The translations under genes were made by a program, and so were the position numbers. From Candidatus Binatia bacterium (lineage in GTDB: Bacteria > Desulfobacterota > Binatia > UBA9968), in assembly GCA_036000865.1 (NCBI GenBank), contig DASYUV010000252.1, forward strand, positions 623 through 64,622: a DNA stretch of 64,000 nt, read 5' to 3'. The notes under the pieces are model-generated. The model was not told the DNA's origin. It saw only the letters and a list, made by a program, of their open reading frames with translations, and ran no database searches. This document shows positions 10,926 to 53,046 of the stretch, in pieces (within the stretch, counting starts at the first letter, position 1; every line of letters starts with the position of its first letter).

Positions 10926-11549
10926 GTGAAGAGGCCAGAGTGTATTAAGATTTTAGATCGAAAGCTGGGCGACGATGTACTCGTCGTCACTCCGACGGGC
11001 AGGACTTACATGTACTGGGAAGCAACCGGGAGAGAAGCCCAGATCTCACAGGTGAATTTGGGTCTTTGCATGCCGGTGGGGCTGGGATTGGCTTTGGCGC
11101 TTCCCCACCGCAAAGTAGTGGTACTGGACGGCGACGGCAATCTGCTCTTCAATCTCGCCTCCCTTGCGGATGCTGCCGTTCAGAATCCTGGAAACCTGAT
11201 CGACATCGTCTTTGACAACGAATGCTATCAGTCTTGCGACGCTCTTCCGTCCGCCACCTCCAAAGGCGTGGACTTGGAGAGCGTCGCTAGGAGTTGCGGC
11301 ATCAAAAATACGGCGACGGTCAAGGAATCCGGCGCCTTCGAAGAAGTCCTCGACAAAACCCTCCTGGACAACAAGCTGGCCGTCATCGTAGTGAAGGTCG
11401 AGCCGGGCGAGGAAAACGTTCCGCTTCCCCAGCAAGAGGGTAGGGAAAACAAATACCGGTTCGTCAGGCATATCGAGAAGACGGAAAACATCCGCATCAT
11501 CAATCCCTATTCGCGCCGGCGAAAAAAAGATGTCCTTTCGCAAGTATAG
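10926..11549 (+). CDS. Split ThDP-dependent decarboxylase, beta (PP-domain) subunit, ComE/phosphonopyruvate-decarboxylase-like (beta-1)
   Basis: GTG start after GGGAGGAG. It has the ThDP-Mg motif LDGDGN-x24-FDNE and the family-specific tail NKYRFVRHIEKTEN. Confidence 0.75.
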   Translation: MKRPECIKILDRKLGDDVLVVTPTGRTYMYWEATGREAQISQVNLGLCMPVGLGLALALPHRKVVVLDGDGNLLFNLASLADAAVQNPGNLIDIVFDNECYQSCDALPSATSKGVDLESVARSCGIKNTATVKESGAFEEVLDKTLLDNKLAVIVVKVEPGEENVPLPQQEGRENKYRFVRHIEKTENIRIINPYSRRRKKDVLSQV

Positions 11550-11628
11550 TTATGAATCGGATTGCGGGCCGAAAAAATTATCATGCGCCGCGGACTGTCG
11601 AGCCGGCAAATCCCGATCCGTTTAGAAA

Positions 11629-12666
11629 TTATTTTACGGTCTTTCGAACTTCTTGAAGTATGGAGTAATCCACCAGAGCAGCCAGAGTCACCGGAGGGGC
11701 ATTGACCGCCTGCTTTCTAGCGTCTTCGTAAGGCGCTTGCAAGTCCGCGAGATCAATCTCTCCGTTGGGAAGAAAAACCCTCATGGCGTCATCGTAAATA
11801 GCATCAAAATTTTCCGGCTTCACGTCCAGCCGCTTCGCAAAGACAGCTTTGACTCGATTCCGATCCGCCTTCATCACTGTCAAGGCTCGGTACAGGGCTC
11901 TTATGCTTTTGCGGATTTCTTCCCTCTTGTCAGTCATCGTCTGGACTCCGATGCCGAGGCCCCCCACCGGCTGCCTGAGATACTGACCGGTGAAGAGGAG
12001 CGGCTTCATGCCGGCTTTCTCCGCCGGGATTTTTTCAATGTTGTTCAAAATGGCCGACTCTACATGCCCCGAGATCAGCGCGGCGATGCGCGTCGGCCCG
12101 CCGCCTATGGCGAGTATTTTCACGTCCTTGCTGGGGTCCAAATTGAAGTGACGGAAGGCGGCTCTGGCATCGAAATCCGTGGCCGAGCCGTATCTTGAAA
12201 TAGCCACCGTCTTACCCTTTAACTGCTCGATGTTCATGATCCCGGGCTTAGTGACAAGATAAAAGAAACTGCCGTTGAAAAAGTTGATCACGGTTTTAAC
12301 CGGAGCCCCGATGGCCGCCGCTTTCACCACGCTGCTGATGCTGGATGCAAAGTCGATGTCTCCGGTTACCAGCCCTTTCATGGCGATGTCCGAGCGGATC
12401 ACCACAATTTTTGAATCAATTCCCTCCGCTTTTAGATATCCCAACTCCTCGGCGACAAAGATGGGCGAAGCCGATACATCCGTCGCCGAGACCGCAAATA
12501 CTACACGTTTGAGACTTTGAGCCGAAGCCGGCCTGGCTTTGAGAATAACAAAGGCGCAAAGCAATAGGAGCAGGAAAGCCGCAGGTCGGAACCCGTTTAC
12601 CCTGCGATTCGTCAAGGAGCTTATAGGCAGCGCGCCGCTATTTTCCACATGACTACTTTTTTGCAT
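11629..12666 (-). CDS. NMT1/SsuA-TauA-type periplasmic solute-binding protein (SBP-1)
   Basis: Signal peptide ...AAFLLLLLCAFVILKARPASA/QS and the AISRYGSATDF motif. An AGGAG RBS precedes it, 11 nt after alpha-1. Confidence 0.8.
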   Translation of the reverse strand: MQKSSHVENSGALPISSLTNRRVNGFRPAAFLLLLLCAFVILKARPASAQSLKRVVFAVSATDVSASPIFVAEELGYLKAEGIDSKIVVIRSDIAMKGLVTGDIDFASSISSVVKAAAIGAPVKTVINFFNGSFFYLVTKPGIMNIEQLKGKTVAISRYGSATDFDARAAFRHFNLDPSKDVKILAIGGGPTRIAALISGHVESAILNNIEKIPAEKAGMKPLLFTGQYLRQPVGGLGIGVQTMTDKREEIRKSIRALYRALTVMKADRNRVKAVFAKRLDVKPENFDAIYDDAMRVFLPNGEIDLADLQAPYEDARKQAVNAPPVTLAALVDYSILQEVRKTVK

Positions 12667-12677
12667 CTGTCACTCCT

Positions 12678-13187
12678 TTAGATTTCGTCAAAGATGATGT
12701 CCCCGGTTAGCAGCACGGCCGCGGGTTGCAGCCAAGCTTCGGCCGATAGTTGGGCTCGCTTTATCGCCCAGGCAATTTCCTCGACCTTGTCAACGACGGT
12801 ATAGGCAACGTGAAGATCTTTTAAAACCGGTTCGGTGGTGAAGTGATAAGGCCCCATGAACCAAATGCCATCGCCGAGACTGCCTCTATAGGGCACGACC
12901 ATCAGGACCGGTATGTTTTTCTGCATATTCAAAGTGGTCAATGGAAAGGCGGCAGCGAGTATCCCCGCCGTGGGGATAAGCAGAGCGGGTTTTTTTCCTC
13001 CCATCCATGCCCCGGCGCAAACACCGACTCCGATGCCTTCGTTGCTGACCGATACGCATTGGAAAGACTTATCGTTCATCGCGGTTCGCTGGACTTCGGC
13101 CCAATCCGAGTCCGGCAGTATGGAAATGAAATTTATCCCGGCCTGCTTTAGCCCGCTAATGCTCGCTTCGACAGCTTCTTTTTTCAT
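12678..13187 (-). CDS. Split ThDP-dependent decarboxylase, alpha (PYR-domain) subunit, ComD-like (alpha-1)
   Basis: 169 aa, with the VSNEGIGVGVCAG catalytic-Glu motif of ThDP pyrimidine-binding domains. Confidence 0.75.
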   Translation of the reverse strand: MKKEAVEASISGLKQAGINFISILPDSDWAEVQRTAMNDKSFQCVSVSNEGIGVGVCAGAWMGGKKPALLIPTAGILAAAFPLTTLNMQKNIPVLMVVPYRGSLGDGIWFMGPYHFTTEPVLKDLHVAYTVVDKVEEIAWAIKRAQLSAEAWLQPAAVLLTGDIIFDEI

Positions 13188-13239
13188 AGACCGCGGCTGT
13201 TCCGTTTCGAATTCATAAAATGAACGGCGATAGGGGTCA

Positions 13240-13851
13240 CTACTCTACAAGAGGCGATTGTGAGCGAAGCCGCAGGACCGGTTTTTTTTCTGTTTCTTCG
13301 ATATATCCGGCAAAGATGTATTTATTGCGCTTGCCGTCCATATTAAGGTGAGCAACTTTTACCGTCCCCGTTTCAATCTTGGCGACCAGAACGCTCAGTT
13401 CCTTCGCTTCAAGAAAAGCTTGAGCGTTCTTTTTGAATTCTTCCACGCTCGAAACGGTTAAAGTTTTTTTGATTCCGCTGGCGTCGGCGATCTTTTCCAG
13501 ATTGGTGTCTCCCGCCGTGGCGGAAGGGAGTCCTCCCGGGGATTCATAAGCTTCATTATCAAAGATGATGATCCGCAGGTTGGCTGGTTTGTGACGCGCC
13601 ACGTCCGCCAGCGAAGCCAGGTTCATGAGCATGTTTCCATCGCCGTCCAAAGCGATGACTCGTCTCTTCGGTAAAGCTAATGCCAAGCCGAGCGCCACCG
13701 GCGTGCATTGACCCAAGTTGACGTTGTAAAGGTTTGCCGGGGACGCGCGCACGGCGTGCAATTCCAGCGAGGTATTGCCCACGTTGGCAACCACGATGTC
13801 TTCGTCCGCAATGATGGAAGCAAGAATGTCGAGGCACTCATATCGTTTCAT
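13240..13851 (-). CDS. Split ThDP decarboxylase beta subunit (beta-2)
   Basis: The start MKRYECLD overlaps the alpha-2 stop as ATGA. It has LDGDGN-x24-FDNE and the tail NKYIFAGYIEETEKKPVLRLRS. Confidence 0.8.
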   Translation of the reverse strand: MKRYECLDILASIIADEDIVVANVGNTSLELHAVRASPANLYNVNLGQCTPVALGLALALPKRRVIALDGDGNMLMNLASLADVARHKPANLRIIIFDNEAYESPGGLPSATAGDTNLEKIADASGIKKTLTVSSVEEFKKNAQAFLEAKELSVLVAKIETGTVKVAHLNMDGKRNKYIFAGYIEETEKKPVLRLRSQSPLVE

Positions 13852-14348
13852 CGTAACGTCTCCCCGGAAAAAAGCACGCAGATCGGATTTTGCCATGCGA
13901 ACGACGATGCCACGGCATCTTTAATGGCCGTGTCGACCTCGGCAATTTCCCGCACGACGACGTGAGGGATCTGCAACGCCTCGAGGATCGGCTCGGTGGT
14001 AAATTTGTACGTCCGCATCACCCAAAAAGCGTCGCCAATGTCACCGCGATAGGGAACCAGCAATAATAACGGGATTCCCCACAGCTGATTCAGACTGCCC
14101 AGCGGCCAAACTGAAACCAGCAGTCCAGAAGTCGGTATAATCATGGCCGGCACCTTGCCGCCCAAATAAAGGCCAGCACATATTCCCACTCCAATGCCCT
14201 CATTGCTCACGGGTATATAAGTGAATGTCGGGTCTTCGGCGATCATCCTCTGGACGTCGGCAAAACCATGATCAGGCAGAATGGCCACCGAATCCACGTG
14301 AGCCTCTTTAAGCCCCTTTACAATTGCGCTGCTCGTCTTTGCGTTCAT
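13848..14348 (-). CDS. Split ThDP decarboxylase alpha subunit (alpha-2)
   Basis: 166 aa with the VSNEGIGVGICAG motif. It is collinear with alpha-3 (31939-32439) over its full length. Confidence 0.8.
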   Translation of the reverse strand: MNAKTSSAIVKGLKEAHVDSVAILPDHGFADVQRMIAEDPTFTYIPVSNEGIGVGICAGLYLGGKVPAMIIPTSGLLVSVWPLGSLNQLWGIPLLLLVPYRGDIGDAFWVMRTYKFTTEPILEALQIPHVVVREIAEVDTAIKDAVASSFAWQNPICVLFSGETLR

Positions 14349-14382: not shown

Positions 14383-15870
14383 TCAATGTGCACGCTTGGG
14401 AAGGATATGGCTCCACTTTTGTTTTACTTTTTCCTTGTAGGCCGGGCTTGCGGAACTCACTTGAGGAAATTCCTTGCGCCACGAATAAGGCCGGCACGCA
14501 TCAATAATGATGCATGAGGTGATGAAATCGTTCTTCGCTTTTTTCTCAGGTGAAAGTCTGGGGTTTAGAGAACTGGCCGCAATGTCTAAAATCTCGGAGG
14601 CTGTTTTCGGATCCCAGCGCGAGGCAACGGCCCACAACAGCTCATTGACGTTCGTAATATCTATGTCGTCGTCCACCACGATAACCATTCTCGTGTCTCT
14701 TCCGCCATCGCGGGTTGATAAAACGCCAAGCGCCGCTTGTTTGGCATGGCCCGGGTATCGCTGCCTTATGGAAACCGCGGCGACAAAGCGGCCGTGGCGC
14801 GGGAACCACACGCCGGTAACGTCAGGCACACCGGACCGTTCGAGGGTGGCCCAAATATTCGCTGCGCGAACGTATCTGACCAGTTCGCTATTTAAATAGG
14901 TCTTGAGGGGTGGCGAGCCGGTGATGATCGGATCGTCACGGTGATAGATGCGCCGCACTTTGATGACCGGCGCTTTTTCCGGGCCGGAGGCATAATAACC
15001 CGGCCACTCACCGAACGGTCCTTCCACGCGCGATTCGGTTTCCGGCGGCGGCGCAAAACCTTCAAGGACGATTTCCGACAATGCCGGCATGGGCAAGCCG
15101 GTGATGCCAGCGATTGTGGTAGGAATCGGCCGGCCCAGAAATCCTCCCAAAAAATCGTATTCGCTCACGCCCCACGGCAATCCCAGTCCGGTCGCCATCA
15201 TGAAAGACGGCGGCATGCCGCAGACAACCAGAAAGGGACAGTCCTTTCCCTTTTCCCAGTACTTCCTCGCGATCAAATCGCCGTGCTTGCCGGGGAAGAT
15301 GTTGACGCCGACCGTTTGTTCATCGTGAAGCTGGACTCGATAAGTTCCGACGTTCACATACCCGGAGTCCGGATCTTTACATACCACGGCATTGAACGTT
15401 CCAATGTATCGGCCGCCGTCCAACTCATGCCATTTCGGAGTTGGGAACTTGAGGAGATCGACGCCCGCCGCTTCGAGAATGTTCTCCAAGATCGGCGCCT
15501 CTCCTGTCACCACCGGAGCAATGGGGCTTAAACTATTTAATCGCTCTTTCACTTCTCTAGCCAATTCGACGCCTCTTAATCCGGGCCGCATGCCGATGGC
15601 TAGTGACTCGCGCAGGGGCGACTTCAAAATATTACTCAAGACGCGATATCCCCGCTCATAGCCCGGGATGTCATCAAAGAGCAAAGCCGGGGTGCTTTCC
15701 GATTCCGCGAAGATCTCTGTGATCGCGCCGATTTCCAAATCCCAGTGCGCTCCCTCAATCACCTGAAGCTCACCACCGTTTTCAATCCGGTCCAAGAAAC
15801 ACCGCAGATCGAGCGCTGGATCGCCGCTGCTCTCGGCGCGTACTTGAGTCGTCTCACCAGCAGTTTTCAT
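14383..15870 (-). CDS. UbiD-family (prFMN-dependent) decarboxylase (UbiD-1)
   Basis: EGPFGEWPGYYAS motif and overall UbiD length and layout. The ATG at 15870 was chosen over the upstream start at 15912. Confidence 0.8.
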   Translation of the reverse strand: MKTAGETTQVRAESSGDPALDLRCFLDRIENGGELQVIEGAHWDLEIGAITEIFAESESTPALLFDDIPGYERGYRVLSNILKSPLRESLAIGMRPGLRGVELAREVKERLNSLSPIAPVVTGEAPILENILEAAGVDLLKFPTPKWHELDGGRYIGTFNAVVCKDPDSGYVNVGTYRVQLHDEQTVGVNIFPGKHGDLIARKYWEKGKDCPFLVVCGMPPSFMMATGLGLPWGVSEYDFLGGFLGRPIPTTIAGITGLPMPALSEIVLEGFAPPPETESRVEGPFGEWPGYYASGPEKAPVIKVRRIYHRDDPIITGSPPLKTYLNSELVRYVRAANIWATLERSGVPDVTGVWFPRHGRFVAAVSIRQRYPGHAKQAALGVLSTRDGGRDTRMVIVVDDDIDITNVNELLWAVASRWDPKTASEILDIAASSLNPRLSPEKKAKNDFITSCIIIDACRPYSWRKEFPQVSSASPAYKEKVKQKWSHILPKRAH

Positions 15871-15924
15871 GATTTCCCTTGTCCGCGTTTCAGGCAAACC
15901 GAGCGGCGGCAAAGCGGAGCCGAT

Positions 15925-16917
15925 TCATTTTGCAGAGGCTCGCGCCACCCTCAGCAACGACCAATCCACCAAGTCATCCAATCCTACGGGTGGCGGTTTG
16001 GTGGCCGCCTTGCGCGCGTCTTCATAGGGAGCGACTAAATCGCTCGCTGGAATCTCGCCCTCGGGCAGAAACACTTTCAACATAGACTCATAGGCGCTAT
16101 CGAACTGCTTCGCGCTAATGGCCAATTCTTTGTCAAAAAAATCTTTTATCGCGTTCTTGTCATTTTTCAGGACCGTTAACGCCCGATATACCGCTCTGAG
16201 CGATTTCACTAAAAAATCCCGATTCGTCCGAATCTTCTCGATGGAAGTTCCCAATCCGCCCACAGGTTGTTTATTAAACTGCCCGGTAGAAAGGAGCGCT
16301 TTCATGCCGGCTTTTTCAGCGTGTTCCTTTTCACCTTCCGTAAGGATTGCCCCATCGACCCGCCCGGAGACCAGTGAAGTAAGACGGTTCGTTCCTCCGC
16401 CCACCGGAAGGATGGTAACATCGCGTCCGGCCTCCAAAGAAAAGTGCTTCAAGACCGCTCTCGCGTCGAAATCAGTAGCGGATCCGTATCGCGAAATAGC
16501 AATGGTTTTTTTTCTCATCATCTTTATGTCGGTAATATCCGGCTTGGTAACGAGGTAGAAGAACCCGCCGTTAAAAAAACTGACGACGATTTTTACCGGG
16601 ATACCGACCGCGGCCGCCTTCGTAACGCTACTTAAGCTCCCGGCAAAGTCGGCGTCGCCCGAGATGAGGCTCGCTATTTGAAGATCCGACCTCATCACCA
16701 CGATTCGTGGTTCCAATCCCTCCTTCTTGAAGTAACCCAACCGATCCGCCAACCAGACGGGAGCCGATGACAAATCTTTTGTCGACACGGTGATCACGAC
16801 ATAATTTTTTTGCGTTTGGGCGGCGCTCGGTCGCGCTGTCCCGGCGATCACCAGCGTCAGCCAAACAATAAAGGGAACGCCGGTGATGACTAGCTTGCGA
16901 AATCCAGGTGCACTCAT
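15925..16917 (-). CDS. NMT1/SsuA-type solute-binding protein (SBP-2)
   Basis: Signal peptide ...VPFIVWLTLVIAGTARPSAA/QT and the AISRYGSATDF motif. It is a close paralogue of SBP-1. Its start overlaps the Rieske oxygenase stop (ATGA). Confidence 0.8.
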   Translation of the reverse strand: MSAPGFRKLVITGVPFIVWLTLVIAGTARPSAAQTQKNYVVITVSTKDLSSAPVWLADRLGYFKKEGLEPRIVVMRSDLQIASLISGDADFAGSLSSVTKAAAVGIPVKIVVSFFNGGFFYLVTKPDITDIKMMRKKTIAISRYGSATDFDARAVLKHFSLEAGRDVTILPVGGGTNRLTSLVSGRVDGAILTEGEKEHAEKAGMKALLSTGQFNKQPVGGLGTSIEKIRTNRDFLVKSLRAVYRALTVLKNDKNAIKDFFDKELAISAKQFDSAYESMLKVFLPEGEIPASDLVAPYEDARKAATKPPPVGLDDLVDWSLLRVARASAK

Positions 16918-18137
16918 GAAATACCTCCCGGAATGTAGTCTGGTGACGCTTGTTTGTGAACCTCCCGAAGAGGGGCTTTCTCATCCGTAAGGCCTTTTGG
17001 CGGATCACACCACGGCGTCAGCTGTGCACCCTTGGCAAGCGCGCTTAATTCGCGGTCAAAAAGTTTTCGGATAAGAATCACTCCTTTGTCGCTTTGTCCA
17101 AGCCGCTCTTGATTCCGATCGGCGAACGCGCCCTGACCGACGGCGGTGACGTAGTCCTCGATCCAAAACAGATCGAACGTGCTCAGATTGGCGTCGAGAT
17201 CTTCGATGCTGGTCTCCCCGGCGAGAACGGATTCGGCTAGTTTATTAAGCCTTGCCGTATCCACTTTCGCCATGAAGTCATTACATTGCTCCCGATACGC
17301 CGTCGCCTCGCTGCCGTCAATTTCCAAATAATCGATCGGAAAAGTCACACATCGTCCGTCATTGATCGGGACATAGATAAGAAGCCGAACATTCGGATAA
17401 GCAGTCGTTTTTCCGGCGCCCGGGACCCGCGTTTCGATGGTGCCAGGCTCTCTCCCGAGCTCTACGAGGTTCGGCATAAAGAAATAAGTGTAGGTCTGCC
17501 GGCCCGCGCGGGTAAAGCGCACGCCATATTCCATTTCTTCAGCCGTGATCGAGCCGCCGGGCTTCAGTTGGCGGCCCACGCGGCGCAGCGATTCACGGTG
17601 AGTGAAGGGAGGATGGGCGCTGTCATTCTCAAGACGGTTGAAATAGTTGCACGGCCACATCTCGGGCGGATTTGCGATCAGCAGGCCCTCGCCTTCCAGG
17701 TCGGCAAATCTTCTAAAGCTCGGCGTCTCCTTTTCACCGAAATAGCCCCAGATCAAACCGAGGTAATCTTGCGCCGGCCAACTGCGAATGCGCACTTTCG
17801 AAGCGAACGAGATGCTCTCCGAGGGCTGCTCAACACACTGGCCACACGCATCATATTTCCAGCCGTGATAACGGCACCGGATGTCTTCTCCTTCCACCCA
17901 TCCGGTTGATAGCTGCGTCCCTCGATGGGCGCATTTAAACGCGACGATATGAGGCGATCCGCTCTCGCCGCGATACAAGGTAAACTTCTCGCTCAGGATT
18001 TCTACGGGGACCGCCCTGCCGCGCTTTAAATCTTGACTCCGATAGATCGGTTGCCAGAAATTTCGCAGGTACCGCCCGCACAGCGTCTCGCGGCCGGTTT
18101 TAACAACATCATCAAGACGGGATTGTTCCTTGCTCAT
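16914..18137 (-). CDS. Rieske non-heme-iron oxygenase, alpha (catalytic) subunit
   Basis: Rieske motif CAH-x16-CRYH and mononuclear iron motif D-x2-H-x4-H (ENDSAHPPFTH). Confidence 0.8.
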   Translation of the reverse strand: MSKEQSRLDDVVKTGRETLCGRYLRNFWQPIYRSQDLKRGRAVPVEILSEKFTLYRGESGSPHIVAFKCAHRGTQLSTGWVEGEDIRCRYHGWKYDACGQCVEQPSESISFASKVRIRSWPAQDYLGLIWGYFGEKETPSFRRFADLEGEGLLIANPPEMWPCNYFNRLENDSAHPPFTHRESLRRVGRQLKPGGSITAEEMEYGVRFTRAGRQTYTYFFMPNLVELGREPGTIETRVPGAGKTTAYPNVRLLIYVPINDGRCVTFPIDYLEIDGSEATAYREQCNDFMAKVDTARLNKLAESVLAGETSIEDLDANLSTFDLFWIEDYVTAVGQGAFADRNQERLGQSDKGVILIRKLFDRELSALAKGAQLTPWCDPPKGLTDEKAPLREVHKQASPDYIPGGIS

Positions 18138-18167
18138 GAATTTCCTCGCTCGGCAATTCCTTGGCTC

Positions 18168-19004
18168 CTATCCTCCTTTTGAACTATTTTCCTTCAAAGG
18201 AAACATTTGCTGAGCAAGCGCAGCAAACGGCAGCCCAATCCCTAATTCCCGAGCGAGATCAAGCGCGGGTGTAATCGTGTGAAGAACCAAAGCGAATCCT
18301 TGCTTGGATCGAAGATCTTCATCCCTCACAACAAAACGCCCTAACCAATTATCAACGACGTAACTTTGCGCGAAGGACTGGCCAAGGACCTCCTGGGTGA
18401 GTCTTTCATCAAGCCCGTAAGCATGAGCCAAGCGCATACCTTCATAAGCGGAAAGTCTGTTCAAGCAAAGAATCGTCTGCTGGACGAGCTTCATCACCGA
18501 GCCCATTCCTAATTTTCCCATATGAAAAATATTGGCGCCGGAGCTTGCGAGCAGCGGCCGGCACCTCTCAAACACGGCTCGGTCGCCGCCGACCATGAAG
18601 CACAATTGACGATTTTCTGCGCCAGCTTGCCCGCCACTCATCTGCGCGTCGACTATTTCGAGACCGCGCTCTTTTACGGCCGTCGCTAGCTGGCAAATGG
18701 TAGCCGGGTGCACGGTGGTATGAATGATCACGATGGAACCGGCACGGGCGCCGGCCAGGATGCCGTCGTCCCCTGCGATAACCCGCTGCACCTGAGAGTC
18801 GTCCCACACAACGACACAGATGAGCTCGGAGTTCTTGGCGACCTCCTTGGGGCTTGTTGCGGGGTTGGCTCCGAGTTCGAGAAGCTCCTTCACCGGTGCT
18901 TCTCTTACGTCATAGACGCTGACTCCAAAGCCCGCCTGGAGGCTATTCATGGCCAGGGCTTTGCCCATTTTGCCCAGCCCGACGTATCCTACAGTTGCGC
19001 CCAC
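18168..19004 (-). CDS. NAD(P)-dependent dehydrogenase, 3-hydroxyisobutyrate/6-phosphogluconate dehydrogenase (HIBADH) family
   Basis: GYVGLGKMG Rossmann motif. The GTG at 19004 is preceded by AGGAG. The track ORF begins at a TTG at 19025. Confidence 0.7.
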   Translation of the reverse strand: MGATVGYVGLGKMGKALAMNSLQAGFGVSVYDVREAPVKELLELGANPATSPKEVAKNSELICVVVWDDSQVQRVIAGDDGILAGARAGSIVIIHTTVHPATICQLATAVKERGLEIVDAQMSGGQAGAENRQLCFMVGGDRAVFERCRPLLASSGANIFHMGKLGMGSVMKLVQQTILCLNRLSAYEGMRLAHAYGLDERLTQEVLGQSFAQSYVVDNWLGRFVVRDEDLRSKQGFALVLHTITPALDLARELGIGLPFAALAQQMFPLKENSSKGG

Positions 19005-19061
19005 CGCAAAACTCCTAACTCGCAAAATAGACCAATGACGAGAACAGAGCCGGTAATTTTT

Positions 19062-19463
19062 CTATTGACGCATCTTAACTTCGATTTGATGATTGTCTGG
19101 GTCGAGAATATATTTTGACGGGCTTCGCCCGGTGGCGCCGGTTCTGGGCATCAGTTCGCATTGCAACTTTTCGAAGACACCCGCGGCTGCGAGCTTGGCC
19201 ATGATCGCTTCAAACTCTTTTGCTTCAAACGTCAAACAGAAGTGATCGGGCCTTCCCTCCACGGATGGCGGAAGAGCAACAAAAGCCGGGTTATAGAGGA
19301 GGAAAATCAGACTTTCACCCACCTTGATCGCCGCGGCTTCGATATTATCGCCTCCGCCTAGCATGCGACGGTCGACTAACTCAAACCCGAACATTTCTGT
19401 ATAAAAGTTGATCGACCTATCGAGATTGGTAACTCGAATACCCACATGATCGAGTAATGCCAT
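19062..19463 (-). CDS. VOC-family protein (glyoxalase/extradiol-dioxygenase fold)
   Basis: LDHVGIRVTNLDRSINFYTEMFGFE N-terminus typical of the VOC/glyoxalase I superfamily. Confidence 0.75.
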   Translation of the reverse strand: MALLDHVGIRVTNLDRSINFYTEMFGFELVDRRMLGGGDNIEAAAIKVGESLIFLLYNPAFVALPPSVEGRPDHFCLTFEAKEFEAIMAKLAAAGVFEKLQCELMPRTGATGRSPSKYILDPDNHQIEVKMRQ

Positions 19464-19487
19464 CGTTTTGATCCTCCTTCCTAGGCG

Positions 19488-20291
19488 TTACAGATAACCG
19501 TCATTCCCTGCTCTTCGAATCATACTCGGACTGAGTTTATCCTTCAGCTCAAGCGCTGGCTCGCCTGTTTCAGTATCCATCAACGTTTTCGCAATACGGC
19601 GCGCTCCCTTAACGCCGGCCTCCGCTATTTGCTTGATTTGCCGGTAGGGGTATTTTGCCGACGGCCAGCTAAGACTCAGGACGGCGATAGGCCGTCCGTG
19701 GGCAGCGACTATAGGTATAGATGCGGATACCGCGCCTTTGACGGCGGTGCCACGACTCGTCGCATAGCCGCGCTTTTTTATGCGCGCCAAACTGCTCCAA
19801 AGGGCAGCGTTTCTTGTTAAGGAGCCGGAGCCTAACAATTGCATCGCTTCATTTATCGGTAAGAACGCTAAAAAAGCTTTTCCGGCGCTGCCGAACAAAA
19901 TGGAATGCCTTAAACCGAGCGGAAAACTGACTCGCAAAAGATCGTTGCTTTCCACTCTATCAATAACGACCATTTGCTTGCCTTCCCGGATTCTCAACGC
20001 CACCGTAATCCCTAAGGATTCCGACAGCGACCGCATGACCGGGAGGGTGGCTCGTTGTACCTGCTCGTAGTTCGCTGAGACGAGAGCGCGAAATTGCGGG
20101 CCCACGGTATAACGCTTCGTCCGCTGATTTTTTTCCACAAAACCCATCGTTTCCATTACGGCGAGAATCCGATGGATGGTGCTTTTGTCGATCTCGACCG
20201 CTCTCGCCAACTCCGCAAGGCTGTAGTCAGACGCCTTCGCCCGCAGCACCGTCAGCAAATGTAATCCCTTGACTAAGGTCCCTGCTTTCAT
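19488..20291 (-). CDS. IclR-family transcriptional regulator
   Basis: N-terminal wHTH (SLAELARAVEIDKSTIHRILAVMETMGFV) and a C-terminal IclR effector domain. It is the only regulator in the island. Confidence 0.85.
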   Translation of the reverse strand: MKAGTLVKGLHLLTVLRAKASDYSLAELARAVEIDKSTIHRILAVMETMGFVEKNQRTKRYTVGPQFRALVSANYEQVQRATLPVMRSLSESLGITVALRIREGKQMVVIDRVESNDLLRVSFPLGLRHSILFGSAGKAFLAFLPINEAMQLLGSGSLTRNAALWSSLARIKKRGYATSRGTAVKGAVSASIPIVAAHGRPIAVLSLSWPSAKYPYRQIKQIAEAGVKGARRIAKTLMDTETGEPALELKDKLSPSMIRRAGNDGYL

Positions 20292-23938: not shown

Positions 23939-23951
23939 AGGACGCGACACC

Positions 23952-27066: not shown

Positions 27067-27086
27067 CCGGCGCAAGGGAGCAAGTC

Positions 27087-47663: not shown

Positions 47664-48680
47664 CTAGCGCGCGTAAAGCGCGTCGATGAATCCGCTCTGA
47701 TCCAGCTCTCTAACAAAGTGCAGATCAACGAGATCTTCCGGTTTGATCGCGCGTGCCTTAGGATCTTTCTCTCCAATGGTTCCTAAAACCGTCTTGAGTC
47801 CCTCGAGCGTCGGATATTGTTTGCGGGGAAGTTGGTTATCCGCAATGTAGCGGTCGTAGGCTCTTTCCATGCTATCTTTGTCGCGCACTTTGCCAAAGTA
47901 TTTTGCCGCTACCTTGAGCCCTGTCTCACGGTCGGTCTTGAGTCGATGGATGGCTTCCACATGGGCCTTCACATATCTCCCCACGGTGTCGGCGTTTTCG
48001 CGGATGAATTTACGCGTCGTGACCGCGCCGGTGTGCTGAAACGCCAAGCCCAGCGAAGCAACGTCGGCGAGCACTGTAAAGCCATTTTTTTGGCCGATGA
48101 AACTGGTGGGCGGATTGAAGACAGCGCCTTCTACGCGCTTTGCCGTCATCGCCAAAAAGCGATCCGTGTTCGTTCCGACCTGAACTATGGTGACTTCCTT
48201 CTCAGGCGTAAGGCCGACTCTCTGAAGCGCAAATCGTGCGACAAAGTCGGAAACCGAGCCGAACCTGCTAATCGCGATCGATCCGCCTTTTAACTGCGCG
48301 GGGGCCTTGATCTCCGGCCGGCCCATTAGCCACCAATCAAGCGTGATGGTCCCTCCTGCGACGAACACCGGATCGCTCCCTGCGAGATAAGCGTTGACCA
48401 CCTCCGGGCCGGCATTTTGGGAAATCGCGGTGTCGCCGGAAACAAGCGCCATGGCCGCTGTCGTTCCTCCGGTGAAATAAACGAGCTGAACATCGAGGCC
48501 ATTTTTTGTGAAGAGTCCTGTGTCCTTTGCAATCCAAGCCGGCAGTTGATCATAACTGATGGCGCTATAGGCGACAGTAATTCGGGTCAGCTTCTCCGCG
48601 GGTTGTACGGCGGGACGCCACGCCAGTATGAAGACAATGGTCGCGAGGATTATGGATGTCAGAGTGCGCACGGTGCCCAT
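47664..48680 (-). CDS. NMT1/SsuA-type solute-binding protein (SBP-9)
   Basis: N-terminal hydrophobic signal or anchor (LTSIILATIVFILAW), the AISRFGSVSDF motif and the C-terminal LDQSGFIDALY tail. Confidence 0.8.
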   Translation of the reverse strand: MGTVRTLTSIILATIVFILAWRPAVQPAEKLTRITVAYSAISYDQLPAWIAKDTGLFTKNGLDVQLVYFTGGTTAAMALVSGDTAISQNAGPEVVNAYLAGSDPVFVAGGTITLDWWLMGRPEIKAPAQLKGGSIAISRFGSVSDFVARFALQRVGLTPEKEVTIVQVGTNTDRFLAMTAKRVEGAVFNPPTSFIGQKNGFTVLADVASLGLAFQHTGAVTTRKFIRENADTVGRYVKAHVEAIHRLKTDRETGLKVAAKYFGKVRDKDSMERAYDRYIADNQLPRKQYPTLEGLKTVLGTIGEKDPKARAIKPEDLVDLHFVRELDQSGFIDALYAR

Positions 48681-48729: not shown

Positions 48730-50160
48730 TTACAAAAGTATGTGACGCCATTTTTCGGTTACTTTGGCTCGCTCTTCCGGCGTCAGCGCATGGTCCTTTG
48801 AGAAGTCTTTGATCCAGCGAAATGGCCGGCAGGCGTCGATAATGGCGCGCGAGTTGGTGAAATCGCCCTGACTTCTTTGCTCCGGCGGAATCCTGGGATC
48901 GATCGGGCTGCTCCAGCATCCGCGCACGATCTCGATAGATGTTTCCGGGTCGCACCTCGTAGCAATCGCCCACAAAACATCGGCCATGTTGGACGGGTCG
49001 ATGTCGTCGTCAACGACAATCACGAAGCGTCCCAAGTATCCGCCCTCACGGGCACCAAGGGCTACATGAGCCGCCTGGCGCGCGTGGCCGCCGTAGCGTT
49101 GCCGCAGGGAGATGACTTGTAAGAATCTCATGCCGGATTCGAGTTGCCATACGCCCTTGACGTCGGTGACGCCGCACTTTTCCAGTTCGTTCCAGATTTC
49201 GGCGGATCGAAAAAGCAGCGACAGGTAACTGTCGAGCGGATAAATTTTTAGATCTCCAACGACCGTGATGATCGGATCCGTGCGGTAATAAATTCGTTTG
49301 ACGTGAATGACCGGGGCAGGGCGGGTGGCCGAGGCGTAGTAGCCGGTCCATTCACCAAAGGGGCCTTCGGGCCTCGACTCTACATCAGGAGGCGGCATCT
49401 CGCCTTCCAAAACGATTTCCGCGTGCGCCGGAATCGGTAGCCCCGTATGCTCGCCGGTAACAACTTCAAATGGCTTGCCGGCGACATGACCGGCAAAGTC
49501 GTATTCCGACACTCCCCATGGAAGCCCCAGAGATGCCGCGGCAAAAAGGACCGGCTCAATGCCGCACACAACCGCTACAGGGCAGGCCTGTTTTTTCATC
49601 CAATATTGCTCGGCGATTAGCCGTGTTTGTTTGCCGGGAGAGATGTAAATGCTCACAACCGCAGGCTCTTGGAGCTGCACTCTGGCGGTGCCGAGATTGA
49701 CCCAATTTCCTTCCGGATCTTTTGTGATGACCGCATCCTGTGTGCCGATGTATTTTCCGCCGTCGTCCTTGTGGAGCTTGGGTGCGGGAAATTTGAAAAC
49801 GTCGATATCTTGTCCCCGGAGGACGTGTTCCGTGATCGGCCCCGAAGTAACTAGTTTGGGCGGAACGGGCTCATGGTCTTCCATCCGTTTGCGAATCGCG
49901 TCGACCAGGGCAGGTCCTCTCAGAGTAGCGTTAACTCCCAACGACTCGGCGGTCCGGCGTTGAGTTTGAAACATGTTGATCAGAACCCGGTAGCCATCGG
50001 GGTAACCTTTAATCTTGTCGAACAGTAAGGCCGGCGGCTCCGTTCCCAAACCGGAAACCTCGGCCAAGGCGCCGATGTCAAGATCCGCGTCCGCGCCTTC
50101 GACTATCTTCAATTGGCCGTTGGCCCGCCAATCCTCTATCAATCCTCGCAAGTCGCGCAT
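48730..50160 (-). CDS. UbiD-family decarboxylase (UbiD-3)
   Basis: EGPFGEWTGYYAS motif. It is a paralogue of UbiD-1. Confidence 0.8.
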   Translation of the reverse strand: MRDLRGLIEDWRANGQLKIVEGADADLDIGALAEVSGLGTEPPALLFDKIKGYPDGYRVLINMFQTQRRTAESLGVNATLRGPALVDAIRKRMEDHEPVPPKLVTSGPITEHVLRGQDIDVFKFPAPKLHKDDGGKYIGTQDAVITKDPEGNWVNLGTARVQLQEPAVVSIYISPGKQTRLIAEQYWMKKQACPVAVVCGIEPVLFAAASLGLPWGVSEYDFAGHVAGKPFEVVTGEHTGLPIPAHAEIVLEGEMPPPDVESRPEGPFGEWTGYYASATRPAPVIHVKRIYYRTDPIITVVGDLKIYPLDSYLSLLFRSAEIWNELEKCGVTDVKGVWQLESGMRFLQVISLRQRYGGHARQAAHVALGAREGGYLGRFVIVVDDDIDPSNMADVLWAIATRCDPETSIEIVRGCWSSPIDPRIPPEQRSQGDFTNSRAIIDACRPFRWIKDFSKDHALTPEERAKVTEKWRHILL

Positions 50161-50735: not shown

Positions 50736-51728
50736 CTACCGGTATAGCTTCTGAACCAAGCCGCTTGCTTCCAACTCTTTCAGAAGGCGGATATCGGCAA
50801 ACATTTCCGGCTTGAGGCCTTTGACTTTGGGATCTTTCTTGGCGATTTCGTTGAGCACATTCTGAATGCCCTTCATATCCGGATAGGGGACTCTGGGAAT
50901 TATATCTTGGTAATGGCGATAGGTTTCGTCGATGAGAGTTGCATCCCCGAGCCGGGCGAAGGCGTCAAGCGACTTCATGCTGGCTTCTTTTTGCGTCTTG
51001 AAAAAGTGGATTCCCTCGACCATCGCTTTCATGATGCGGCGGGTTAGCTCCTCGTTTTTCGATACATTGGAAGCGGTGCTGACAATGCACGTATTCGGAT
51101 AGGCAAGATTAAGTTGCTCGGGAGTGGCGATTTCGTTGAATCCTGACTTGCGGGCAACGATATCGGCAGGGGGTCCGACAATCGTTCCGTGCACGGTGCC
51201 GCTCTTAAGAGCGGTGAGGCGTGCCGGTTGACTGCCGATCTGGAGAATTGCCACGTCTCGATCGGGAACAAGCCCCCATTTATCGAGGGCATAACGAACG
51301 ACAAAATCGGTTGAAGAGCCGAAGCGGCTTACGCCCAATTTTTTTCCTTTCAGGTCCTGGGGCTTCTTAACCTCCGGCGCAGTGATGATACTGAAATCGA
51401 TAAGATTGATCAGACCTCCCAGTATCACCGTATCGGCGCCCTGCAAGCGGGCCAGTATCGAAGGTTCACCGCTCACCACCGCAATGGGCAGATCACCTGC
51501 AATGAGGGCTTGAATAATTCCGCTTCCGCCGGCGATAAGTACAAGGCTGACATCGAGGCCGTTTTTCGAGAAAATGCCAGCATCCCCAATGACCCGAAGA
51601 ATTGCCTGGGAACCCGAGATGGAGGAATATCCGAGATTGATACGGATTGGTTTTTCCTGGGTTGCGCCGGGGAGAGGAAATAAAAAAGCGACCCATAGGG
51701 CAATTATTGCGGAGGTGAGATATCTCAT
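50736..51728 (-). CDS. NMT1/SsuA-type solute-binding protein (SBP-10)
   Basis: ATG at 51728 after GGAGG. Signal peptide MRYLTSAIIALWVAFLFPLPGAT/QE, the GVSRFGSSTDF motif and the LEASGLVQKLY tail. Confidence 0.8.
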   Translation of the reverse strand: MRYLTSAIIALWVAFLFPLPGATQEKPIRINLGYSSISGSQAILRVIGDAGIFSKNGLDVSLVLIAGGSGIIQALIAGDLPIAVVSGEPSILARLQGADTVILGGLINLIDFSIITAPEVKKPQDLKGKKLGVSRFGSSTDFVVRYALDKWGLVPDRDVAILQIGSQPARLTALKSGTVHGTIVGPPADIVARKSGFNEIATPEQLNLAYPNTCIVSTASNVSKNEELTRRIMKAMVEGIHFFKTQKEASMKSLDAFARLGDATLIDETYRHYQDIIPRVPYPDMKGIQNVLNEIAKKDPKVKGLKPEMFADIRLLKELEASGLVQKLYR

Positions 51729-51896
51729 ACGACCTCCAGTCCGTCGGCTCAATAAGCTGCAGCGCTTCGTGCCCTGATTCTCCAGATGTATATCACTGCT
51801 TCCTCCACTCATGTCAATTTTTGAAGGTCCGGAGGATCCCTGGCCGCGGTTTCTAGGTCTGAGCGAAATCCAGGTAAAGTGATGCAGCAGAGTGCC

Positions 51897-51925
51897 TTGA
51901 CATCGGTGCTAGCTTTTTTTATACG
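51897..51925 (+). promoter_or_regulatory. Candidate sigma70-type promoter for alpha-5/beta-5
   Basis: TTGACA-N17-TATACG ending 19 nt before the GTG start at 51944. This is a pattern match only. Confidence 0.35.
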
Positions 51926-51943
51926 CAGTTCATTGGTGCAACG

Positions 51944-52450
51944 GTGGAAGCGGAGCTTGCAGCGAGAATTGTCGGCGCGTTGAAAGAGGCGGGGATCAGT
52001 TTTGTTTCGTATCTGCCAGAAACAAGACTTAGCCAAATCATGCCATCGCTGCGCGAAGACCCGTCTTTCATGCTGGTCCCTGTTGCCAATGAATCGGAGG
52101 GGGTTTCGATAGCCGCAGGCGCCTCATTAGGCGGAAGGCCGGCTGCGGTGTATATGGAGGGCAGCGGTGTTTACATTTCGTCCTACAACCTCCTGGTGCT
52201 TGGCAAGCGGCTCGGCGTTCCCATGCTGCTGCTCGTCGCATATTACGGCAGCATCCTGGATCAGCGAAACAGTTTTCTCTACGCTTTTCCCGGCATTCAC
52301 CTAGTTCCAATCCTCCAATCACTCGATATCCAGTATGAAGTTTTCCAAAACGGGGACTTTTTGGAGGACAAGATTAAAGGGGCCGTGAAGATGATGCACG
52401 CCATCAAGCAGCCGGTGGCCCTCCTCTTTACAGGAGCATTCACGGCATGA
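51944..52450 (+). CDS. Split ThDP decarboxylase alpha subunit (alpha-5, most divergent)
   Basis: 168 aa with a VANESEGVSIAAG motif at the catalytic-Glu position. GTG start. Confidence 0.7.
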   Translation: MEAELAARIVGALKEAGISFVSYLPETRLSQIMPSLREDPSFMLVPVANESEGVSIAAGASLGGRPAAVYMEGSGVYISSYNLLVLGKRLGVPMLLLVAYYGSILDQRNSFLYAFPGIHLVPILQSLDIQYEVFQNGDFLEDKIKGAVKMMHAIKQPVALLFTGAFTA

Positions 52451-53046
52451 ATCGTTACGACTGTTTTGAGTTTCTGGCACCGCTGATCAAGGACCAGCTT
52501 GTGATTGGCTCTCTCAGCGGGCAACGGGTCGAGTGGGGTCACCTTTGCCGGCACGAAGGTAACTTGTTAGTGGCCTCCATGGGAGCCGCTTTGGGGGTCG
52601 GCGTAGGCCTCGCGTTGGTCCTGCCCCATCGGAAAGTTATTGTTTTGGAATCTGATGGGAGCCTCCTGCTTTCGCTCTACAATCTTCCGACTTTAGGTAA
52701 TTTGAGCCTTTCCAACCTTGCAGTTTTCGTATTCGACAACGAGGTGTACAGCGGGACGCGGATCAGCGAGCCGAGCGCAACTGCCGGAAAAACTGATTTA
52801 GCTGGCGTGGCTCGGAGTTGCGGTATCGAACGAGCGATGACGGTGCGCGAGATCGATTCTTTTAAGCGTGAATCGAAAAAAGCTCTAGACGAAAATGTGC
52901 TTCGTTTTCTTGTGTGTAAAGTAGATCCGACAACCGGGCATCGCCAAATCGAGCGACCAAACGAAGATCTATGGGAGCATAAATATCGTTTTGTGAGATA
53001 TCTAGAAAGAACCGAAGGCAAAGAAATTTTCAAAGGTCGTGGCTAA
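52447..53046 (+). CDS. Split ThDP decarboxylase beta subunit (beta-5)
   Basis: ATGA overlap with alpha-5. It has LESDGS-x24-FDNE and the tail HKYRFVRYLERTEG. Confidence 0.75.
   Translation: MNRYDCFEFLAPLIKDQLVIGSLSGQRVEWGHLCRHEGNLLVASMGAALGVGVGLALVLPHRKVIVLESDGSLLLSLYNLPTLGNLSLSNLAVFVFDNEVYSGTRISEPSATAGKTDLAGVARSCGIERAMTVREIDSFKRESKKALDENVLRFLVCKVDPTTGHRQIERPNEDLWEHKYRFVRYLERTEGKEIFKGRG

Follow-up and report, generated by a model that had tools for sequence, protein, structure and literature searches.

What does a bacterium gain from five copies of a two-subunit thiamine diphosphate (ThDP) enzyme, set within a single locus among a series of secreted binding proteins? The question is raised by a 64,000-nucleotide stretch of DNA (the window) from Candidatus Binatia bacterium (assembly GCA_036000865.1, contig DASYUV010000252.1, positions 623 to 64,622), an uncultured soil or groundwater bacterium related to metagenome-assembled genomes (MAGs) labelled Deltaproteobacteria or Binatia. 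Split enzymes of the sulfopyruvate decarboxylase (ComDE) type are considered to represent the ancestral type of ThDP decarboxylase; ComDE itself functions in coenzyme M synthesis and in the bacterial degradation of sulfolactate and 2,3-dihydroxypropane-1-sulfonate (DHPS), and to our knowledge sulfopyruvate and phosphonopyruvate were the only known substrates of split ComDE-type enzymes until 2026. A preliminary description of the window, made from the sequence alone, had proposed an undescribed system of uptake-linked modules in which five such split decarboxylases are each wired to NMT1/SsuA-type substrate-binding proteins (SBPs), with anionic 2-oxo acids (sulfo-, phosphono- or carboxy-substituted) as plausible substrates. 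The split architecture, the multiplicity of the pairs and the conserved proximity of SBPs have held up under the analysis presented here; the sulfonate/phosphonate lead and the exclusive wiring to SBPs have not. We find that the locus is better described as a conserved multi-module heterocycle/aromatic-acid catabolic island, spanning ~46 kb (~10.9-56.3 kb of the window), than as a two-part system of ThDP enzymes and binding proteins.

Five split ThDP enzyme pairs in one island

Each pair combines an alpha subunit carrying the PYR domain (166-169 aa) with a beta subunit carrying the PP domain (199-211 aa), and five open reading frames (ORFs) of each kind are present where the preliminary description had placed them. 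On the minus strand, alpha-2 (13848..14348, 166 aa, with a 78% identical orthologue in MAG JACQUW01) and beta-2 (13240..13851, 203 aa) are followed by alpha-1 (12678..13187, 169 aa), with beta-1 (10926..11549, 207 aa) on the plus strand. The remaining pairs all lie on the plus strand: alpha-3 (31939..32439, 166 aa, 70% identical to alpha-2) with beta-3 (32436..33071, 211 aa), alpha-4 (34373..34882, 169 aa) with beta-4 (34879..35496, 205 aa), and alpha-5 (51944..52450, 168 aa) with beta-5 (52447..53046, 199 aa). A six-frame scan of the window with hidden Markov models built from the pairs recovered five ORFs of each subunit and no more, so that no copy has been missed, and five such pairs within 42 kb is far beyond chance. 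In alignments, the catalytic Glu (Glu50) is invariant within a V(S/A)NE motif in all five alphas (VSNE in alpha-1) and aligns with its counterpart in ComD, RhiE and AzcB; all five betas carry the ThDP diphosphate/Mg motif, in which (G/S)DG and DNE are separated by 26 residues. Pfam TPP_enzyme_C is matched by every beta at 50.7-64.2 bits (57.6 for beta-1, 64.2 for beta-2, 62.7 for beta-4 and 50.7 for beta-5; cut-off 21.9), and TPP_enzyme_N is matched weakly by four of the five alphas (33.1 bits for alpha-5; cut-off 26.8). The ORFs, Pfam matches and alignments therefore bear out the preliminary account of the pairs, their motifs and the ten SBPs that accompany them. Identities of 31-70% among the alphas and 34-61% among the betas identify the copies as old paralogues rather than recent duplicates.

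The arrangement of most of the genes is consistent with heteromeric enzymes. Given the length of homologues (203 aa), the true starts of beta-2 and beta-3 most likely lie 15 codons inside the listed ORFs, which reach 13896 and begin at 32391, at internal ATG codons at 13851 and 32436, respectively. With these starts, four of the five pairs display a 4-nt stop/start overlap, reading ATGA in alpha-2/beta-2, alpha-3/beta-3 and alpha-5/beta-5, and TTGA in alpha-4/beta-4 with the listed TTG start of beta-4. Such overlaps are typical of translationally coupled subunits, and in combination with the congruent alpha and beta trees described below they lead us to infer that alpha and beta form heteromers. 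The fifth pair departs from this pattern, as alpha-1 and beta-1 occupy opposite strands with SBP-1 between them and beta-1 inverted so as to converge on SBP-1. The same order recurs in a JGI contig (L001) whose beta-2 is 96% identical, which identifies the rearrangement as real rather than an assembly error; orthologues of alpha-1 and beta-1 are adjacent and co-directional in two further genomes (L016 and L017). Because beta-1 is inverted beyond SBP-1, its expression must be uncoupled from that of alpha-1 in this genome.

Placement within the ComDE/Ppd/AzcBC superfamily

ComD and ComE are the best-scoring curated NCBIfam models for all ten proteins (E-values of 1e-20 to 4e-40), in keeping with the earlier assignment to split enzymes of the ComDE/phosphonopyruvate decarboxylase (Ppd) type. 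Nevertheless, the scores reach only 50-70% of the trusted cut-offs of these models: the alphas score 74.3-107.2 bits against ComD TIGR03845 (85.9 for alpha-1, 107 for alpha-2, 94 for alpha-3 and 74 for alpha-5; equivalog cut-off 147.95), and the betas 84.8-137.8 bits against ComE TIGR03846 (111, 137.8, 122 and 99.7 for beta-1 to beta-4, respectively; equivalog cut-off 221.5). Matches to Ppd TIGR03297 (49-63 bits for the alphas and 77-114 for the betas; cut-off 312.5) and to PRK06163 (91-118 bits; cut-off 240) likewise fall below threshold, and beta-4 additionally scores 112.6 bits against NF004813. The only solved structures related by sequence are RhiEF (9IZ3/9IZ4) and the AzcBC chains (9U8Q/9U8R/9U8S), the latter released on 2026-04-01 under a title naming the TPP-dependent alpha-imino acid decarboxylase AzcB/AzcC of Streptomyces. 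Among these structures, alpha-2 is matched best by RhiEF (E 3.9e-10), and alpha-4, beta-2 and beta-4 by AzcBC. Alpha-4 is the closest of the five alphas to AzcB (phmmer E 2.6e-18 to 9U8Q_A); in Foldseek searches its AlphaFold2 (AF2) model (pLDDT 83.8) aligned with AzcB at TM scores of 0.84-0.86 and with RhiE at 0.80, with full-length ThDP enzymes (AHAS, IPDC and HACL) trailing at E ~1e-6.

Neighbour-joining (NJ) trees of each subunit were constructed with a PGAP-named comDE from a Leisingera plasmid, a Ppd encoded beside phosphoenolpyruvate (PEP) mutase in Arthrobacter (L026), RhiEF, AzcBC and a Variovorax pair as references. In both trees, which are congruent, the five window pairs group with their orthologues from MAGs and a pair from Rhizobium in one clade of five orthogroups that branches apart from every reference pair. 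The NCBIfam, Foldseek and tree results place the pairs neither with acetolactate synthase nor with any other characterised full-length ThDP family. Residue-level features mark the same division: the catalytic Glu is preceded by Asn in the clade, as opposed to Lys in ComD, Arg in RhiE and Asp in AzcB, and the betas end in a clade-specific tail, NKYxFxxYIExTE. The strand-4 segment of the alpha subunit is more varied, reading MEN(S/T)G(L/V)R in alpha-4, the Rhizobium alpha and AzcB, QN(S/T) in ComD, RhiE and Ppd, and IPT(S/A)G in alpha-1 to alpha-3; alpha-4 is the only window alpha with MENxGxR. An alpha profile run against 1.84 billion representatives of clusters at 50% identity returned 3449 matches at E <= 1e-3, 1303 at 1e-10 and 81 at 1e-30, the last figure indicating that the close clade is small inside a larger superfamily. 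Judged by sequence, then, the pairs represent a distinct clade of the ComDE/Ppd/AzcBC superfamily. No description of the clade or of the island was found in the literature searched, consistent with the earlier claim that they are undescribed; since the superfamily is known and the island resembles known catabolic cluster designs, the system is not categorically new.

Comparison with the characterised members clarifies what is shared and what is not. ComDE has the same organisation of a PYR alpha subunit (~165 aa) and a PP beta subunit (~185-205 aa), the same catalytic Glu and GDG...N motif, and subunits encoded by separate adjacent genes, as in four of the window pairs, the fifth being split by an SBP gene. 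The window nonetheless differs from ComDE in the extra conserved C-terminal tail of its betas, in the lack of sulfonate genes nearby and in its five paralogues per genome, compared with one. AzcBC is likewise split and has MENxGxR in common with alpha-4 and the Rhizobium alpha; however, AzcB is only ~31% identical to alpha-4 and is not placed within the clade by the alpha tree, MENxGxR is missing from alpha-1 to alpha-3, and the catabolic context of the window contrasts with the role of AzcBC, which we assume to be biosynthetic from its gene naming alone. RhiEF and Ppd share the heteromeric split ThDP decarboxylase architecture, yet TIGR03297 scores in the window do not exceed 114 bits, PEP mutase is lacking there, and QNS takes the place of IPT or MEN.

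Some relatives of the alpha subunit among the cluster representatives are longer proteins. In P0332, P0344, P0347, P0383 and P0386 (370-390 aa) the PYR domain lies at residues ~210-380; if the N-terminal ~200 residues constitute a PP domain, proteins of this type would be fusions with beta ahead of alpha, opposite to the order in single-chain Ppd. In P0427 (393 aa), the alpha domain is N-terminal.

Binding proteins and their linkage to the pairs

All ten SBPs belong to the NMT1/NMT1_2 family. Eight match PF09084: SBP-1 (11629..12666, minus strand, 63.2 bits) and SBP-2 (15925..16917, minus, 54.8 bits); SBP-3 (22784..23938, plus, 91.6 bits) and SBP-4 (23919..24917, plus, 64.7 bits); SBP-5 (30881..31837, plus, 57.2 bits), directly upstream of alpha-3; SBP-6 (33092..34198, plus, 65.7 bits), between beta-3 and alpha-4; SBP-7 (35588..36811, minus, 58.9 bits), convergent with beta-4; and SBP-8 (41932..42903, plus, 79.3 bits). 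SBP-9 (47664..48680, minus, 51.8 bits) and SBP-10 (50736..51812, minus, 75.3 bits), the latter divergent from alpha-5, match PF13379. Inspected by eye, each of the ten, SBP-1 included, has a signal-like hydrophobic N-terminal segment with an A-x-A-like end. The ORFs of SBP-3, SBP-6, SBP-7 and SBP-10 are over-extended at their 5' ends, with signal-like segments starting 25-80 residues in, and their true starts are probably internal Met/Val codons; as listed, the SBP-7 ORF overlaps that of a neighbouring amidohydrolase (Amh1) by 119 nt.

The NMT1 family includes the sulfonate-binding type proteins SsuA and TauA, and its NMT1/THI5 and ThiY members bind pyrimidines. SBP-5, the sole SBP scanned against NCBIfam, scored 56.5 bits against SsuA_fam TIGR01728, far below the cut-off of 163.5. 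For SBP-5 and SBP-10, the two compared with the PDB, the best match is an uncharacterised exported protein (3QSL), and only SBP-10 matched TauA (6SSY, E 2.8e-9). A role in thiamine or hydroxymethylpyrimidine salvage was considered and rejected in view of the lack of TenA, ThiD and ThiXZ genes and the presence of five divergent enzyme paralogues. The Pfam scan of the window revealed no ABC_tran or BPD_transp domains, and no SsuB/SsuC-type genes neighbour the SBPs.

Every pair does lie near an SBP gene, as the preliminary description had noted, yet so do most other genes of the island: of the 33 non-SBP genes, 18 have an SBP gene as direct neighbour and 27 are no more than two genes away from one, with all three UbiD genes and both Mo-hydroxylase large-subunit genes directly SBP-adjacent. 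When the ten SBPs were re-placed at random, at least four of the five ThDP pairs were SBP-adjacent in 26% of trials (P = 0.26). Interleaved with every enzyme family, the SBPs are an island-wide feature rather than a dedicated partner of the ThDP enzymes, and the claim that each pair is wired to an SBP was overstated. More distant relatives of the pairs point the same way, adjoining SBPs of the BMP (Rhizobium), SBP_bac_1 (L014) or Opp (L004) types, or none. There is roughly one SBP per enzyme module, and SBP-alpha-beta cassettes are nonetheless kept as syntenic units across genomes.

Conservation of the island in other genomes

Homologues of beta-2 number in the hundreds in metagenomes and MAGs, where the JGI pipeline names them 'sulfopyruvate decarboxylase subunit beta', and the few with NCBI labels carry Deltaproteobacteria, Binatia, Eisenbacteria and Bathyarchaeia MAG names. 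Taken at face value, such automatic names could distort conclusions on coenzyme M or sulfonate metabolism drawn from MAGs of Binatia and other groups. We annotated the neighbourhoods of three beta-2 homologue loci and 16 GTDB genome loci with profiles derived from the window, and found the island reproduced module by module, in the same gene order, in these loci and in metagenome contigs. The MAG labels of the syntenic loci comprise Deltaproteobacteria, Binatia, Eisenbacteria, Verrucomicrobiia, Udaeobacter and Syntrophobacteraceae. Four modules recur. SBP2-UbiD1-a2-b2 is found in, for example, L002, a locus that also carries one Amidohydro_2 gene. The longest module, UbiD2-CoxG-XDH_M-XDH_S-XDH_L2-SBP5-a3-b3-SBP6-a4-b4 followed by the oppositely oriented SBP7, Amh1 and Amh2, retains the order XDH_L2-SBP5-a3-b3 in L004 and L007-L010, and both the position of SBP-6 and the order from a4-b4 through SBP7 and Amh1 to Amh2 in L008-L010. 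A third module runs Amh5, Amh6, SBP9, UbiD3, SBP10, a5, b5, with Amh6 to SBP10 oriented opposite to a5-b5, and the divergent arrangement of SBP9-UbiD3-SBP10 and a5-b5 is preserved in L019 and L020. The fourth, a1-b1-DUF3891-SBP-a4-b4, joins two pairs.

Linkage to NMT1-type SBPs also recurs beyond the window. Among 22 alpha genes in the GTDB genome loci, an NMT1 SBP is the immediate neighbour of 12 and lies within two genes of 16, with none within 10 kb of two; in metagenome contigs, 28 of 54 alphas have an SBP within two genes. The metagenome scan returned more than 457 relatives of the pairs. A total of 48 metagenome loci extend over 5 kb or more; among these, 34 contain an NMT1 SBP, 20 a luciferase-like oxidoreductase (LLM), 18 a xanthine-dehydrogenase-family (XDH) large subunit, 17 CoxG, 11 UbiD and 11 DUF3891. 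The gene upstream of alpha encodes an SBP in 17 of 48 cases, and that downstream of beta an SBP in 18 of 50 and an LLM in 16 of 50; LLM and DUF3891 genes recur beside the pairs in other genomes, and in the beta-5 orthogroup an LLM gene is usually next downstream. The clade has radiated into at least five conserved orthogroups, is abundant in soil metagenomes and turns up consistently inside heterocycle-type catabolic gene sets. More distant pairs keep other company, adjoining an SBP_bac_1-type SBP (L014), a bicupin (L013) or an Opp-type ABC system (L004), or, in L106, genes of the glutathione S-transferase (GST) and penicillin-amidase families. A full NMT1-type ABC transporter was considered for the last of these loci and rejected, the intervening genes encoding a cytochrome c', a response regulator, the penicillin-amidase-family protein and the GST.

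The nearest homologues in cultured organisms, identified by tblastn with beta-2 on plasmids and chromids, are from Rhizobium tumorigenes, R. grahamii, R. rhododendri and a Hyphomicrobiales isolate (39-41% identity), followed by Roseobacter comDE (33-37%). On plasmid pRt1078 of the plant-tumour bacterium R. tumorigenes (PR017_RS18845-18930; L022, 219638-244210), a pair of the same clade (PR017_RS18880/18875; alpha 166 aa, beta 202 aa, the beta carrying the clade C-terminal tail) is flanked by genes for a LysR regulator, a GST, a split Rieske oxygenase, a BMP-family ABC importer, a guanine deaminase, a GMC oxidoreductase, an aldehyde dehydrogenase and a 2Fe-2S subunit, together with a TRZ/ATZ-like amidohydrolase (150 bits to Amh6) and a fused Mo-hydroxylase (290 bits to XDH_L1); the importer is of the nucleoside/purine type. 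The locus probably encodes a pathway for a purine-like heterocycle. It shares with the window the same-clade pair, a Mo-hydroxylase with 2Fe-2S subunit, a TRZ/ATZ-like amidohydrolase and Rieske components, but has a single pair, a BMP importer in place of NMT1 SBPs, and GMC oxidoreductase, GST and aldehyde dehydrogenase genes, without UbiD or hydantoinase genes. The association of the clade with Mo-hydroxylase, aminohydrolase and Rieske oxygenase hence spans very distant bacteria, whereas the type of binding protein does not. The presence of a same-clade pair in a cultured Rhizobium also makes the chemistry experimentally reachable.

Proposed function and alternative explanations

The enzyme classes encoded in the window, namely Mo-hydroxylases, UbiD-type decarboxylases, amidohydrolases and a Rieske oxygenase, point to heterocycle or aromatic-acid catabolism. 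We consider it probable that the locus is a multi-substrate (N-)heterocycle or aromatic-acid utilisation island, in which the five pairs are heteromeric ThDP decarboxylases of 2-oxo or cyclic 2-imino acids. This proposal is founded on the gene content, the ThDP motifs, the separation of the clade, the recurrence of the island in other genomes and the lack of genes for sulfonate or phosphonate metabolism, from which we infer the assembly of heteromers, the decarboxylase chemistry, the class of substrate and the route from SBP to importer. In each module, a secreted NMT1-type SBP would presumably capture one small (hetero)aromatic or N-heterocyclic acid and pass it to an importer encoded elsewhere. 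Mo-hydroxylases of the xanthine dehydrogenase family would then place oxygens on the ring, TRZ/ATZ-type aminohydrolases would strip exocyclic amines, hydantoinase-like amidohydrolases would open cyclic amides and UbiD-type enzymes would remove ring carboxylates. Each alpha-beta enzyme would have its own 2-oxo or cyclic 2-imino acid, whose C1 carboxylate it would release non-oxidatively as CO2, the resulting aldehyde or imine being handed to Mo aldehyde/heterocycle oxidoreductases, to a reductase or to the LLM. An economical chain could run from R-CO-COO- to R-CHO (ThDP enzyme), to R-COO- (Mo oxidoreductase) and finally to R-H (UbiD). If the substrates are indeed heterocyclic oxo or imino acids, the island would add new steps to the turnover of N-heterocycles in soil and be a source of new biocatalysts.

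A number of observations weigh against this proposal. Carboligase and lyase activities can also occur among ThDP enzymes with this fold, and decarboxylation is therefore assigned to the pairs at the level of the family. No enzyme of the island reaches any curated NCBIfam equivalog cut-off, and the Pfam scan detected neither an ABC permease or ATPase nor UbiX in the window, meaning that uptake and the supply of prenylated FMN (prFMN) must be encoded elsewhere. The NJ trees are rough, carry no support values and include RhiEF and AzcBC as partial sequences only, and the taxonomic labels of the MAGs may include binning errors. In addition, the characterised catabolic cluster closest in gene content lacks a ThDP enzyme altogether and employs an isomerase of the amidohydrolase_2 type, which is absent from the window. 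This cluster, cluster I of Cupriavidus sp. LA-1, is inducible and converts pterins and lumazine to xanthine. Its enzymes are a lumazine dehydrogenase (a Mo enzyme of three subunits), an isomerase of the amidohydrolase family, a decarboxylase of the UbiD type that acts on xanthine-8-carboxylate, and a pterin deaminase; related clusters are found across soil phyla (PMC12391406). It also lends the proposal a precedent, as the window likewise brings together a three-subunit Mo dehydrogenase, UbiD, a ring-opening enzyme of the amidohydrolase superfamily and an aminohydrolase. The two differ in that LA-1 relies on purine/pyrimidine permeases instead of SBPs and the window on Amidohydro_1 enzymes; a Pfam scan of the window found no DHLI alpha/beta isomerase (Amidohydrolase_2), CobW-like GTPase or UbiX. 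Without ThDP enzymes and SBPs, and with its amidohydrolase_2 isomerase, LA-1 cluster I is a design of which the window is not an instance.

Three other explanations deserve consideration. The closest to our proposal, which it overlaps, commits the pairs to imino instead of oxo substrates: as AzcBC-like alpha-imino-acid decarboxylases, they would use ThDP to attack the C=N carbon of cyclic imino acids, releasing CO2 and a cyclic imine, on partly reduced or hydroxylated N-heterocycle 2-carboxylates supplied by the Mo-hydroxylase, amidohydrolase and LLM steps. The structural matches of alpha-4, beta-2 and beta-4 to AzcBC, the strand-4 motif that alpha-4 and the Rhizobium alpha have in common with AzcB, and the N-heterocycle-type enzymes nearby all speak for it; the low identity to AzcB, its position outside the clade and the different motif of alpha-1 to alpha-3 leave it unlikely as an account of the pairs. 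A carboligase or C-C lyase, acting either by glyoxylate-carboligase-like condensation or by hydrolysis of a cyclic 1,2-dione, is also compatible with the ThDP fold, for which glyoxylate carboligase and cyclohexane-1,2-dione hydrolase provide precedents. The operon of alpha-2 and alpha-1 contains a gene of the tartronate-semialdehyde reductase family (NAD_binding_2/NAD_binding_11), and the breakdown of ureides and heterocycles commonly yields glyoxylate (PMC12391406, clusters III and IV). That reductase gene is not retained beside the pairs, however, with a 3-hydroxyisobutyrate-dehydrogenase-like (HIBDH) gene in just one of 48 metagenome loci, and all characterised split ComDE/Ppd/AzcBC members are decarboxylases, so we regard such chemistry as improbable, somewhat more so than an imino-acid specificity.

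The original suggestion, that the pairs are sulfopyruvate or phosphonopyruvate decarboxylases served by SsuA/TauA-type uptake of organosulfonates or phosphonates, fares worst. It can draw on ComD and ComE being the best NCBIfam models, with which the JGI auto-annotation agrees, and on the membership of SsuA and TauA in the NMT1 family, including the match of SBP-10 to TauA. Set against this are the ComD, ComE and Ppd scores, all far under their equivalog cut-offs, the low SsuA_fam score of SBP-5, and the Asn preceding the catalytic Glu where ComD has Lys and RhiE Arg. The preliminary description had itself remarked on the lack of Xsc and sulfite-handling genes, and rightly so: the Pfam scan of the window found no PEP mutase, no Xsc, SuyAB or ComABC and no sulfite-handling genes, and genes for sulfolactate, coenzyme M or sulfoacetaldehyde metabolism are missing from both the window and the three annotated syntenic loci. 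The genes that surround Ppd and the Leisingera comDE locus, which is of the DHPS/sulfolactate type with a TRAP transporter, HpsN-like and sulfolactate-type genes, are likewise absent from the window and its syntenic loci. We therefore hold this explanation to be very unlikely.

The proposal of a multi-substrate utilisation island admits a bolder extension. The pairs could represent an unrecognised catabolic ThDP family acting on heterocyclic alpha-imino or alpha-oxo acids, with each orthogroup matched to its own SBP and heterocycle. Alongside their Mo-hydroxylase, UbiD, hydantoinase, LLM and DUF3891 partners, the orthogroups would then make up a major undescribed route for the mineralisation of N-heterocycles (pteridine, purine-derivative, Maillard/humic) in abundant uncultured soil bacteria, among them Binatia. 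This extension is speculative and we would give it little more credence than the imino-acid alternative; if true, it would carry the chemistry of AzcBC from biosynthesis into carbon and nitrogen cycling.

Other enzymes and genomic setting of the island

The three UbiD proteins, of the prFMN-type decarboxylase family, are UbiD-1 (14383..15912, minus strand, Pfam UbiD 188 bits, below all NCBIfam equivalog cut-offs), UbiD-2 (25145..26491, plus, 226 bits) and UbiD-3 (48730..50160, minus, 204 bits). UbiD-2 is the first gene of a Mo-hydroxylase operon in which the CoxG, FAD, 2Fe-2S and second Mo large-subunit genes of a three-subunit enzyme follow (26617..30829, plus; COXG, FAD_binding_5/CO_deh_flav_C, Fer2_2 and MoCoBD_1/2), the whole being contiguous over 25145-30829. 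In tblastn searches against plasmids, the best matches of UbiD-2 share 37-40% identity, which is not decisive for orthology with a characterised decarboxylase; one of them (~38%) lies inside what we take, from its annotated products and knowledge of hmfABCDEFGH, to be an hmf-like furan cluster, in which UbiD and a Mo-hydroxylase co-occur. The other Mo-hydroxylase large subunit, XDH_L1 of the xanthine dehydrogenase family (20577..22901, plus; MoCoBD_1, MoCoBD_2 and Ald_Xan_dh_C), finds its best NCBIfam match in the 4-hydroxybenzoyl-CoA reductase alpha subunit (581 bits; cut-off 995). An IclR regulator, a glyoxalase-fold protein, a 3-hydroxyisobutyrate-dehydrogenase-like reductase and a phthalate-family Rieske oxygenase (E 9e-27 to 7FHR) were identified by Pfam at 16914..20291 on the minus strand. 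From the IclR gene through the Rieske oxygenase, SBP2, UbiD1, a2, b2 and a1 to SBP1, intergenic gaps measure -4 to 52 nt, and the run is likely one operon.

Six amidohydrolases (Amidohydro_1) complete the catabolic set. Four are hydantoinase/dihydropyrimidinase-like: Amh1 (36693-38183, minus), Amh2 (38192-39685, minus), Amh3 (40381-41913, plus) and Amh4 (42945-44396, plus), 48-55% identical to one another, with matches to TIGR02033 (245 bits; cut-off 393) and to the L-hydantoinase 1GKR (E 2.5e-61). Amh5 (44536-45888, plus) and Amh6 (46007-47521, minus) are TRZ/ATZ-type aminohydrolases (186-188 bits to Amidohydro_1) with family-level matches to models of chlorohydrolase, 8-oxoguanine deaminase and guanine deaminase, none of which reaches its cut-off. 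The right end of the island (53070..56314, minus) encodes, by Pfam, the LLM (F420/FMN), a YCII protein and two DUF3891 paralogues (54517-55359 and 55469-56314, both minus) that are 35% identical to each other. DUF3891 homologues in soil metagenomes are 62-94% identical, one 90%-identity cluster alone holding 1131 member sequences. The AF2 model of DUF3891 is confident (pLDDT 88.5, pTM 0.89), and a Foldseek search of the PDB found no structural neighbour (best E 0.33, TM <= 0.22); the modelled fold may be new. D18-H19, H51-D52, H111 and several Trp are among the residues that never vary, a pattern that could constitute a metal site.

Housekeeping genes border the island, which is taken to be chromosomal, on both sides, with ClpS/ClpA and an M48 protease on the left and tRNA-Pro, rpe, rsmB, fmt, def and priA on the right. 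The island recurs at 60-80% protein identity in MAGs placed in different phyla, a pattern suggestive of either lateral transfer or errors of binning. A mobile element was considered and rejected: no integrase or transposase was seen in the window and GC content is even across it (0.50-0.57), although the right island edge is directly followed by a tRNA-Pro(CGG) gene (57278-57354, minus). That tRNA was the sole match in an Rfam scan of the window for TPP, Moco and other riboswitches, and a scan of 10-21 kb for promoters and terminators was uninformative, with counts equal to shuffled expectation. Further to the left, beyond ClpS/ClpA, the interval 437-5213 contains genes for a MoCF_biosynth-domain protein, which may serve the Mo hydroxylases of the island, for a hydrolase of the isochorismatase family and for a 2-oxoacid:ferredoxin oxidoreductase of two subunits, itself a ThDP enzyme and unrelated to the five pairs. 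Finally, at 56371-57014 on the minus strand, three stop-to-stop pieces in different frames match a profile built on all ten SBPs of the window (E 4e-10 to 2e-8); they are what remains of an eleventh NMT1 SBP gene, broken by frameshifts, at the right island edge.

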